From: Escherichia coli
GTDB lineage: Bacteria; Pseudomonadota; Gammaproteobacteria; Enterobacterales; Enterobacteriaceae
Direction: 5' to 3' (one strand)
Length of the DNA stretch: 64,000 bases
NCBI RefSeq assembly: GCF_003334765.1
Contig: NZ_QOWT01000004.1
In this document: positions 27,452 through 33,403 of the stretch, one piece after another
Position numbering within the stretch: position 1 is the first letter of the stretch
Layout: each line of letters opens with the position of its first letter
The notes under the pieces: model-generated
What the model saw: only the letters and a program-made list of their open reading frames with translations
Database searches by the model: none
Told to the model about the DNA's origin: nothing
Position numbers and translations under genes: made by a program

Positions 27452-30700
<3,249 letters not shown>

Positions 30701-30728
30701 AGGCAGTACATTAAAACAAGGAGCGGCA

Positions 30729-31640
30729 ATGTATTACGGGTTTGATATTGGTGGAACAAAAATTGCGCTTGGCGTGTTTGATAGCGGTCGGCAGTTGCAG
30801 TGGGAAAAGCGGGTGCCGACACCGCGTGACAGCTATGACGCATTTTTAGATGCAGTGTGTGAGCTGGTAGCTGAAGCTGACCAACGTTTTGGCTGTAAAG
30901 GTTCTGTCGGCATCGGTATTCCGGGAATGCCGGAAACAGAAGATGGTACGCTGTATGCCGCCAATGTCCCCGCTGCCAGCGGTAAACCGCTGCGTGCCGA
31001 CCTGAGCGCACGTCTTGATCGCGATGTACGCCTTGATAACGATGCCAACTGTTTTGCCCTTTCAGAAGCCTGGGATGATGAATTTACTCAATATCCACTG
31101 GTGATGGGGTTGATTCTCGGCACCGGTGTTGGCGGCGGGCTGATTTTCAACGGCAAACCGATTACCGGTAAAAGCTACATTACCGGCGAGTTTGGCCATA
31201 TGCGTCTGCCGGTTGATGCGTTAACCATGATGGGGTTGGATTTCCCGTTACGCCGCTGCGGCTGTGGTCAGCATGGCTGCATTGAAAATTATCTGTCTGG
31301 TCGCGGTTTTGCGTGGCTGTATCAACACTATTATCATCAACCGTTGCAGGCTCCCGAAATTATTGCGCTTTATGATCAAGGCGATGAGCAGGCAAGGGCG
31401 CACGTTGAGCGTTATCTGGATTTATTAGCGGTTTGTCTGGGAAATATCCTGACCATCGTTGACCCTGACCTGGTCGTCATTGGTGGTGGCTTATCGAATT
31501 TCCCGGCAATCACAACGCAACTGGCGGACAGGCTGCCTCGTCATCTCTTACCTGTAGCTCGTGTTCCGCGCATTGAACGCGCGCGCCACGGTGATGCGGG
31601 AGGAATGCGTGGTGCGGCCTTCCTACATCTAACCGATTAA
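30729..31640 (+). CDS. nagK: N-acetyl-D-glucosamine kinase
   Basis: ORF trimmed to [18 protein letters not shown] (303 aa); ROK-family kinase. Confidence 0.9.
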
Positions 31641-31655
31641 ACAACAGAGGTTGCT

Positions 31656-32495
31656 ATGCTGTCGCGTCGGGGTCATCGGTTAAGTCGTTTTCGTAAAAAT
31701 AAACGCCGCCTGCGCGAGCGTTTGCGTCAGCGTATTTTTTTCAGAGATAAAGTGGTGCCGGAAGCAATGGAAAAACCAAGAGTACTCGTACTGACAGGGG
31801 CAGGAATTTCTGCGGAATCAGGTATTCGTACCTTTCGCGCCGCAGATGGCCTGTGGGAAGAACATCGGGTTGAAGATGTGGCAACGCCGGAAGGTTTCGA
31901 TCGCGATCCTGAACTGGTGCAAGCGTTTTATAACGCCCGTCGTCGACAGCTGCAGCAGCCAGAAATTCAGCCTAACGCCGCGCATCTTGCGCTGGCTAAA
32001 CTGCAAGACGCCCTCGGCGATCGCTTTTTGCTGGTGACGCAGAATATCGACAACCTGCATGAACGCGCAGGTAATACCAATGTGATTCATATGCATGGGG
32101 AACTGCTGAAAGTGCGTTGTTCACAAAGTGGTCAGGTTCTCGACTGGACAGGAGACGTTACCCCAGAAGATAAATGCCATTGTTGCCAGTTTCCGGCACC
32201 CTTGCGCCCGCACGTAGTGTGGTTTGGCGAAATGCCACTCGGCATGGATGAAATTTATATGGCGTTGTCGATGGCCGATATTTTCATTGCCATTGGCACA
32301 TCCGGGCATGTTTATCCGGCGGCTGGGTTTGTTCACGAAGCGAAACTGCATGGCGCGCACACCGTGGAACTGAATCTTGAACCGAGTCAGGTTGGTAATG
32401 AATTTGCCGAGAAATATTACGGCCCGGCAAGCCAGGTGGTGCCTGAGTTTGTTGAAAAGTTGCTGAAGGGATTAAAAGCGGGAAGCATTGCCTGA
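31656..32495 (+). CDS. cobB: NAD-dependent protein deacylase (sirtuin) CobB, long isoform
   Basis: 279-aa ORF with Arg-rich N-terminal extension; internal alternative start at 31767 ([19 protein letters not shown]) would give the 242-aa short form. Confidence 0.9.
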
Positions 32496-32504
32496 TGCAC
32501 TACG

Positions 32505-32592
32505 CTTATCAGGCCTGCAAGGGGACGCAATTAATTGAATTTGCGGGTTTTGTGGGCCGGATAAGGCGTTCGCGCCCCATCCGGCATAATAC
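32505..32592. repeat. REP palindromic element(s) downstream of cobB
   Basis: gccggataaggcgttcgcgccccatccggc and cgcttatcaggcctgcaag match the REP consensus. Confidence 0.8.
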
Positions 32593-32614
32593 ACGCGCAC
32601 TTTTCCGGCCTCTT

Positions 32615-33403
32615 TTATCGTTTACTCGTCAATAACAATGCGGCAATAAACGTACAGACACCAATTAGCCCTGCCCAGAGTGGCGATATTCTGGTAATCG
32701 CAAAGCTATTATCGATATACAAACATAAAGCCTGATAACCCATATTGGCAATAGTCATCGCCACTGCAAATTTTAACGCATAAATAAAACGAGTCGTGTA
32801 GTAAAAGATCCTGGAAAATAAGATAAACGTCGCAGCCCAGGCGATAAAACCTAATGTGTTGGTGCTGCCGGGGGGAGCATTTTCATGCTGTTGTCCTGGA
32901 TGCGGATAATACGTTAGTGGCGGCGTCGATTGTTTTAATATCTGTGCTTGTAGAACAGCCAATGCATTATTGATTCCCTGATACCAGAGATCTGCATTTA
33001 AATAAGCCAGCGTGTGATTTTCTATCAGAAGGCCGAGATGTTTATCGTCCAGACCACTTTCAACCTGGCCGTTGGTGATCATAATTAACCGTGGTTCGCG
33101 GGTAGTAAATAGTAACAGAACACTTCCTTTTACATCACTCAATGAAGATGACGCATGCGCCAGCATCGCTTTACCATTTTGTCTGAGACTGGCTTCATTA
33201 TTAATGTCGGGTAAAACCACAATAAACGGTGCAATTCCCGTTTGTTGGCGAAAAAGCTCGGCTTTATGCGCGATCTCTTCAGCATCTGGTACAGTACCGG
33301 TAACGTCCGTAAAAAGTGTCTTCATTATTGGAATTAATGGCTTGCTGGCTGCTGTCAGAGGCAGGAGTATCAGTAAACTGAGCAGTATAATGAATTTTTT
33401 CAT
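32615..33403 (-). CDS. ycfZ: Membrane protein YcfZ
   Basis: 262-aa ORF with signal peptide and C-terminal transmembrane segments; conserved position. Confidence 0.85.

Follow-up and report, generated by a model that had tools for sequence, protein, structure and literature searches.

Two in-frame start codons for long and short CobB in Escherichia coli and the sequence surrounding the internal start

The cobB gene in the 64,000-nt stretch of Escherichia coli DNA analyzed here (hereafter, the window) encodes two NAD+-dependent deacylase isoforms in a single reading frame, and the shorter isoform (CobB-S) is produced mainly from a shorter, intragenic transcript; we assign this reading a probability of approximately 0.9. 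The long isoform (CobB-L) would be translated from the first start codon (ATG1), which has a good Shine–Dalgarno (SD) sequence, on transcripts begun upstream, either as a nagK–cobB message or from a promoter inside nagK. CobB-S would be translated from an internal start codon at Met38 (ATG38), mainly on a shorter transcript whose 5′ end falls within the initial 111 nt of cobB. Because that transcript begins within cobB, ATG1 would not be present on it. The sirtuin core is common to both proteins, and an Arg/Lys-rich segment of 37 residues is the additional part of CobB-L, where, according to published biochemistry, it confers polyanion binding (polyphosphate and dsDNA), promotes oligomerization and carries the N-terminal acetylation that lowers activity. 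The two start codons and the occurrence of both CobB proteins in vivo have already been published, and the feature in the window is that published case. A localized signature of AGR codons and synonymous constraint that is co-distributed with the internal start is only a modest addition to the published work. Among the lysine deacylases known in E. coli, CobB is the principal one; hence, which isoform is made, and when, affects how targets such as Acs, DnaA, RcsB and the aminoacyl-tRNA synthetases are regulated through the acetylome.

The cobB locus and its two start codons

The cobB ORF is located at 31656..32495 on the + strand and lies in the gene order lolE–nagK–cobB–ycfZ–ymfA–potD of E. 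coli (window segment 29.5–35 kb). The coordinates of the features discussed below are summarized in Table 1. A sequence-only reading of the window had proposed two in-frame cobB starts, at 31656 and 31767 and 37 codons apart, and these were confirmed to the base: the in-frame ATG that encodes Met38 is exactly 37 codons past ATG1. As computed from the window sequence, CobB-L is a 279-aa protein of 31,464 Da (31.46 kDa), and CobB-S is a 242-aa protein of 26,716 Da (26.72 kDa). The short form has a pI of 5.4, which the extension raises to 7.8 in the long form.

Table 1. Positions in the window of the features at the cobB locus.
Feature	Position	Strand	Remarks
nagK (N-acetylglucosamine kinase)	30729..31640	+	Upstream gene of the nagK–cobB unit; RefSeq annotation of the identical MG1655 segment
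Candidate CobB-L promoter, TTGCGT ... TATTAT	31309..31337	+	Published BPROM prediction; −347..−319, inside nagK
Shine–Dalgarno sequence AGAGG for ATG1	31646..31650	+	5-nt spacing
ATG1	31656..31658	+	CobB-L start codon; annotated RefSeq start; ATG in 80/80 loci
37-codon N-terminal extension, CobB-L only	31656..31766	+	12 Arg + 3 Lys
Candidate CobB-S promoter zone, two −10-like hexamers	31733..31753	+	Positional conservation
Synonymous-constraint zone, codons 28–45	31737..31790	+	Amino-acid-matched synonymous entropy test
ATG38	31767..31769	+	CobB-S start codon; weak SD-like stretch before it in E. coli
Sir2 catalytic domain, residues 48–221	31797..32318	+	Pfam SIR2 PF02146
6-codon read-on KAGSIA + TGA	32475..32495	+	K-12-type alleles only; lengthens both isoforms

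A 1001-nt segment of the cobB region was 100% identical to that of K-12 MG1655 and many other strains. The RefSeq annotation of the identical MG1655 segment is the long form of cobB; this 279-aa annotation is correct yet incomplete. The gene was found in all 5426 complete E. coli genomes (5426/5426). Identity of at least 99% over the surrounding 1 kb was observed in only 1712 of these 5426 genomes, and the 171-nt 5′ segment of cobB was present with no more than one mismatch in 5129. Five of the 5448 E. coli matches to the nagK–cobB segment were plasmid-borne.

The TAA stop codon of nagK (31638-31640) lies 15 nt before ATG1, and a nagK homolog was located directly upstream of cobB on the same strand in at least 66 of 80 Enterobacterales loci, mostly with a gap of 10–16 nt. 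The duplex between the ATG1 SD sequence and the anti-SD was calculated at −6.5 kcal/mol, which ranks in the top 7% of the + strand ATG triplets of the window. The corresponding value for ATG38 was only −3.6 kcal/mol, a value equaled or bettered by 29% of the ATG triplets in the window. By chance alone, neither an in-frame ATG among the first 40 codons nor an open stretch of 37 codons would be surprising; the probability of a stop-free stretch of this length is (61/64)^37, or approximately 0.17. The two-start arrangement stands above chance because of the position of Met38, where the extension meets the sirtuin core, and because of its conservation.

Western blotting of MG1655 with an anti-CobB antibody has revealed bands of 31.5 and 26.7 kDa (NAR 2026, PMC12926920), which match the masses computed here. 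Use of a single start codon in vivo, which the sequence-only reading named as the refuting observation, is contradicted by these published blots, and the published E. coli and Salmonella data bear out its statement that enterobacteria have two isoforms. The published E. coli CobB-L and CobB-S (PMC6209979, PMC12926920) are products of the identical gene with the identical start codons and show no difference from the window; furthermore, the primers published in PMC6209979 match the window sequence at both ATGs.

The basic extension, the sirtuin core and the C-terminus

The earlier description of the extension as Arg-rich was accurate. Its 12 Arg and 3 Lys stand against 3 Asp/Glu, corresponding to a computed net charge of +12 and a pI of 12.0. 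For comparison, the 5′ end of cobB was reconstructed in 80 loci of Enterobacterales, one per species. The basic extension was kept as protein in 80/80 loci, with 35–45 residues and 9–17 Lys plus Arg, and the motif RLxRFRKNKRxLRxRLRQRIFxRD was likewise present in 80/80. In nearly all of these loci, a GAGG or AGGAG SD sequence was located 5–8 nt upstream of the extension ATG. An alignment of 47 sequences showed that R8, R22 and R24 were invariant, and the dN/dS ratio was 0.116 for extension codons 2–31 vs 0.059 for the core. Taken with the 80/80 conservation and the SD sequence, the invariant Arg residues and the dN/dS ratio of 0.116 indicate that the extension is a translated, selected segment and not an annotation artifact. 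It could be argued that only CobB-S is real and that the 37 codons are an untranslated open leader behind a spurious ATG1, given that neither the Pfam domain nor the solved structures require any residue before 39 and that an open stretch of this length is not rare by chance. We consider this barely credible in view of the amino acid conservation in every locus, the low dN/dS, the invariant Arg residues and the conserved strong SD sequence, to which are added the Erwiniaceae, which lack the internal start, and the 31.5-kDa band in MG1655 (PMC12926920).

An AlphaFold2 model built from the 47-sequence alignment had a confident core, a single low-confidence helix at residues 3–27 (pLDDT 50–59) and, after this helix, a predicted disordered linker at residues 28–42. 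The model suggests that the extension is probably a helix on a flexible tether. Residues 8–29 had a hydrophobic moment no higher than that of shuffled sequences (p 0.52), and a membrane-binding amphipathic helix is not endorsed at this shuffle-level value. The suggestion that the basic tail resembles a nucleic-acid interaction module, unlike that of a membrane-interaction tail, already has experimental support, as polyphosphate binding is confined to CobB-L, which also binds dsDNA, though more weakly, with a KD of 6.42 µM (PMC12926920). The published work thus shows that the basic tail gives CobB-L a capacity for polyphosphate and DNA binding that is absent from CobB-S. In Salmonella, the N-terminal domain of CobB-L drives oligomerization and Zn2+ sensitivity (PMC10965786), and acetylation of the CobB-L N-terminus by YiaC lowers its activity (reviewed in PMC8603916).

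Downstream of Met38, the Pfam SIR2 domain (PF02146) was detected at residues 48–221 with an E value of 5.8e-54, covering the full model (1-180/180). The E. coli CobB structures PDB 6RXJ (E 5.4e-165) and 1S5P (E 1e-161) were essentially identical to the window protein from residue 39/40 to residue 274/279. Since the solved structures begin at residue 39/40, the tail is absent from every one of them. Among the 47 Enterobacterales sequences, H147, C155, C174, C176 and C177 were invariant, and in sirtuins these positions are assigned as the catalytic His and the Zn-ribbon cysteines (PMC10965786). NAD+-dependent deacylase activity has been reported for both E. coli isoforms (PMC12926920, PMC6209979). 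Apart from the intragenic promoter, cobB agreed on every sequence feature tested with a sirtuin-family gene that encodes two isoforms.

The C-terminus differs among alleles. In K-12-type cobB, including that of the window, the ancestral TAA stop codon has lost one T (GGATTA-AAAGC here), and the ancestral stop context, GGATTATAAAGC, was found in E. coli SCPM-O-B-8794 and in E. albertii (compared with window 32470-32495). The one-T deletion results in a 6-codon read-on (Table 1) and therefore in a protein of 279 aa vs 273 aa in Salmonella and nearly all of the 80 relatives. This read-on is not part of the isoform mechanism. The cobB–ycfZ spacer (32495-32600) is filled with REP-type palindromic repeats (GCCTGATGC...GCTTATCAGGC and GCCGGATAAGGCGTTCGCGCCCCATCCGGC), and the cobB TGA of this allele is located inside the first of these palindromes. 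In two Erwinia persicina loci (locus positions 1489-2394), the cobB ORF is longer at the 3′ end by approximately 25–30 codons (302 aa), which represents another C-terminal length variant relative to the other Erwiniaceae.

The internal start and its surroundings across Enterobacterales

The codon at the Met38 position was ATG in 50 loci (Enterobacteriaceae, Yersinia, Hafnia and Edwardsiella) and GTG in 5 loci (two Citrobacter, Pectobacterium and Brenneria); that is, a start codon was observed at this position in 55/80 species. It was CAT or CAC (His) in 15 loci (Pantoea, Erwinia, Mixta, Izhakiella and one record titled Enterobacter cancerogenus), CTG or TTG (Leu) in 8 loci (Serratia, Rahnella and Rouxiella) and ACA (Thr) in 2 loci (Klebsiella sp. 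BIGb0407 and an uncultured Cedecea). The internal start is thus restricted to certain lineages. In the Erwiniaceae clade (15 loci) there was usually no nearby in-frame start. Two isoforms have been described as common in Enterobacteriaceae, and Erwinia as having the long form only (PMC10965786, PMC8603916), a statement that the codon distribution in the 80 loci reproduces. CobB of Erwinia amylovora and other Erwiniaceae has the same basic extension and sirtuin core as that of E. coli; it differs in being made as the long isoform only, in carrying His at the Met38 position (15/15 loci) and in having CGN rather than AGR at the flanking Arg codons.

Other lineages showed variations on the internal site. 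In the Yersiniaceae loci with Leu at the Met38 position (five from Serratia, two from Rahnella and one from Rouxiella), a conserved in-frame ATG was present five codons upstream, within D[TS]MAAA (locus positions ~1575-1610). From the sequence, the start of the short isoform may be shifted in these genera and not lost. In Klebsiella sp. BIGb0407 and the uncultured Cedecea, in which ACA is found near locus position 1612, an in-frame ATG lies four codons upstream of the Thr codon and has a fair SD sequence (−6.4 kcal/mol). In Hafnia, Edwardsiella and Klebsiella, the internal ATG follows strong SD sequences, from −9.0 to −10.8 kcal/mol. The presence of such sequences in spite of diverged linkers provides independent evidence that internal initiation has been selected.

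The nucleotide sequence around ATG38 is itself constrained. In an amino-acid-matched resampling of 40 colinear species, synonymous variation was suppressed in codons 28–45 (p ~0.003), and the same resampling did not detect significant synonymous constraint in codons 2–27 (p 0.13). A stronger signal for the whole extension (p ~5e-5) was rejected as largely an artifact of normalizing entropy by codon degeneracy in a segment rich in Arg, Leu and Ser. Among 24 conserved Arg columns, the AGR fraction was 0.94, 0.96 and 1.00 at columns 30, 32 and 42, respectively, and 0–18% at the remaining 21. Columns 30 and 32 are located 8 and 6 codons before ATG38, and column 42 is located 4 codons after it; in the window, the rare Arg codons are AGA30 (31743-31745) and AGA42 (31779-31781). 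Codons 39–40, which follow ATG38, were fixed as GAA-AAA. Around ATG38, the AGR:CGN ratio was 97:8 in the lineages with ATG38 vs 1:46 in Erwiniaceae, a contrast between Enterobacteriaceae and Erwiniaceae to which very few independent evolutionary events contribute. The ATG38 start codon was unpaired in the predicted RNA fold, and its surroundings were A-rich. Folding of 31700-31830 did not detect significant structure (z +0.52), and a structural switch that masks ATG38 was rejected on this value.

Such a signature, of which both the AGR codons and the synonymous constraint are missing in Erwiniaceae, does not obviously have a counterpart in the published CobB work consulted. One tentative reading of the sequence, which we would not favor over its negation, is that the purine-rich and A-rich, unstructured patch, which overlaps the end of the extension, is a dedicated element for CobB-S expression that co-evolved with the short isoform; the A/G-rich AGR codons would then serve CobB-S expression. 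The patch might, under that reading, be a transcription start or initial transcribed region, or else an SD-independent landing site for ribosomes. Through the rare AGR codons, the ratio of long to short isoform could also depend on the speed of translation of the long mRNA, in that slow ribosomes at AGA30 could occlude or expose ATG38.

Transcription and the origin of the short isoform

Published expression constructs provide the most direct information on how the two isoforms arise. In E. coli, plasmid constructs that retained 1218 or 417 nt upstream of the gene produced both CobB proteins, those that retained 30 nt or began at ATG1 produced only CobB-S, and the CobB-S ORF alone produced no protein (Umehara 2018, PMC6209979). 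These results place promoter activity in two intervals, one at −417..−30 for CobB-L (inside nagK) and one at +1..+111 for CobB-S (inside cobB). For Salmonella, transcription from two different start sites has been reported (review PMC8603916).

The E. coli −10 and −35 boxes published for both isoforms are BPROM predictions only (PMC6209979). The hexamers of the candidate CobB-L promoter (Table 1) are only 14 nt apart. The candidate CobB-S promoter zone contains TATTTT at 31733-31738 (+78), which is the published BPROM −10 box, and TAAAGT at 31748-31753 (+93), either of which may belong to the intragenic promoter. A −10-like hexamer was observed at the former position in 32/40 and at the latter in 26/40 colinear species. 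The +93 hexamer is TAAAGT in E. coli and CAGAGT in most other species, and the +78 and +93 hexamers are both weak. At standard thresholds, a sigma-70 consensus scan of 30600-32700 detected no promoter-like site, and terminator-like sites in the same interval were at chance level. An Rfam scan of the whole window returned 0 families. In start-site profiling and N-terminomics work, the text and some supplements of the Ribo-RET preprint, of the Salmonella riboproteogenomics study and of TRAINSPOTTER contained no mention of cobB.

The lack of a consensus sigma-70 promoter in the region is what would be expected if CobB-S came mainly from ribosomes that enter the long mRNA internally at ATG38, with no intragenic promoter. 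The same view gains from an earlier reporter study in which, as cited in PMC6209979, the interval −400..+151 of cobB showed no promoter activity, from the strong internal SD sequences of Hafnia, Edwardsiella and Klebsiella, which would be workable on any mRNA, and from the unstructured, A-rich context of ATG38. It is countered by the constructs that kept 30 nt upstream or began at ATG1, which gave CobB-S without CobB-L, by the absence of any product from the CobB-S ORF alone (PMC6209979) and by the two transcription start sites reported for Salmonella (PMC8603916). The weakness of the E. coli SD sequence at ATG38 also argues against internal entry, since a short dedicated leader fits such a site better than competition on a long mRNA. 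We therefore regard internal entry as an unlikely main source of CobB-S; as the promoter position is only a candidate and the reporter result was null, internal initiation is nevertheless a live secondary route.

A further possibility is that CobB-L is the sole translation product and that proteolysis yields the short species by removing the exposed basic tail. The tail and linker are Arg-rich and predicted to be flexible or disordered (pLDDT ~50), and hence protease-sensitive, and soluble CobB-L is hard to purify (PMC6209979). CobB-S arises, however, from constructs that make no CobB-L (PMC6209979). A cleavage site, moreover, would need neither the start codon conserved at the same position in 55/80 species, nor the local synonymous constraint, nor the SD sequences present in several lineages. 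The construct data and the conservation together make both proteolysis and a spurious start at either codon very unlikely, and an intragenic transcript is retained as the main source of CobB-S.

The infB gene, which encodes the IF2 isoforms (IF2-alpha/beta), resembles cobB in that one ORF yields a full-length and an N-terminally truncated protein with a shared catalytic body. The long and short forms of ClpB are another in-frame alternative-initiation pair from one ORF. The IF2 and ClpB pairs result from internal initiation on the same mRNA, whereas the published data for cobB point to a separate intragenic promoter (PMC6209979, PMC8603916). A close counterpart is Salmonella enterica CobB, for which a CobB-L of 273 aa and a CobB-S of 236 aa were described (Tucker & Escalante-Semerena 2010, as cited in PMC10965786, PMC8603916 and PMC6209979). 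It is encoded by an orthologous gene in the same nagK(ycfX)–cobB context, with two reported transcription start sites. The Salmonella locus in our set has the same 37-residue basic extension and an internal Met at the E. coli position. It differs in that a tandem pair of Met codons (MM) occupies the internal site, vs one in E. coli, and the K-12-type alleles of E. coli are 6 residues longer at the C-terminus.

Two features elsewhere in the window were also recorded. The first codons of nagK include, at 30751-30767 (+), a sequence that matches exactly the sigma-54 binding motif GTGGAACAAAAATTGCG, which was reported by ChIP-seq (PMC4591121) and lies near a gSELEX peak (PMC8743547). This site might drive nagK–cobB transcription. 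It was rejected as a determinant of isoform start choice and is considered unrelated to that choice, because it lies 905 nt upstream of ATG1 and no comparable sigma-54 motif was found in 31656-31770. In the 44000-52000 interval, bluR/bluF are located within 8 kb after icd, with the published bluF sigma-54 motif at 51473-51488. Given this distance of less than 8 kb, the ~15-kb e14 prophage, which interrupts the region in MG1655, is absent here; the window therefore represents an E. coli free of e14, although it shares the K-12 sequence in the cobB region.
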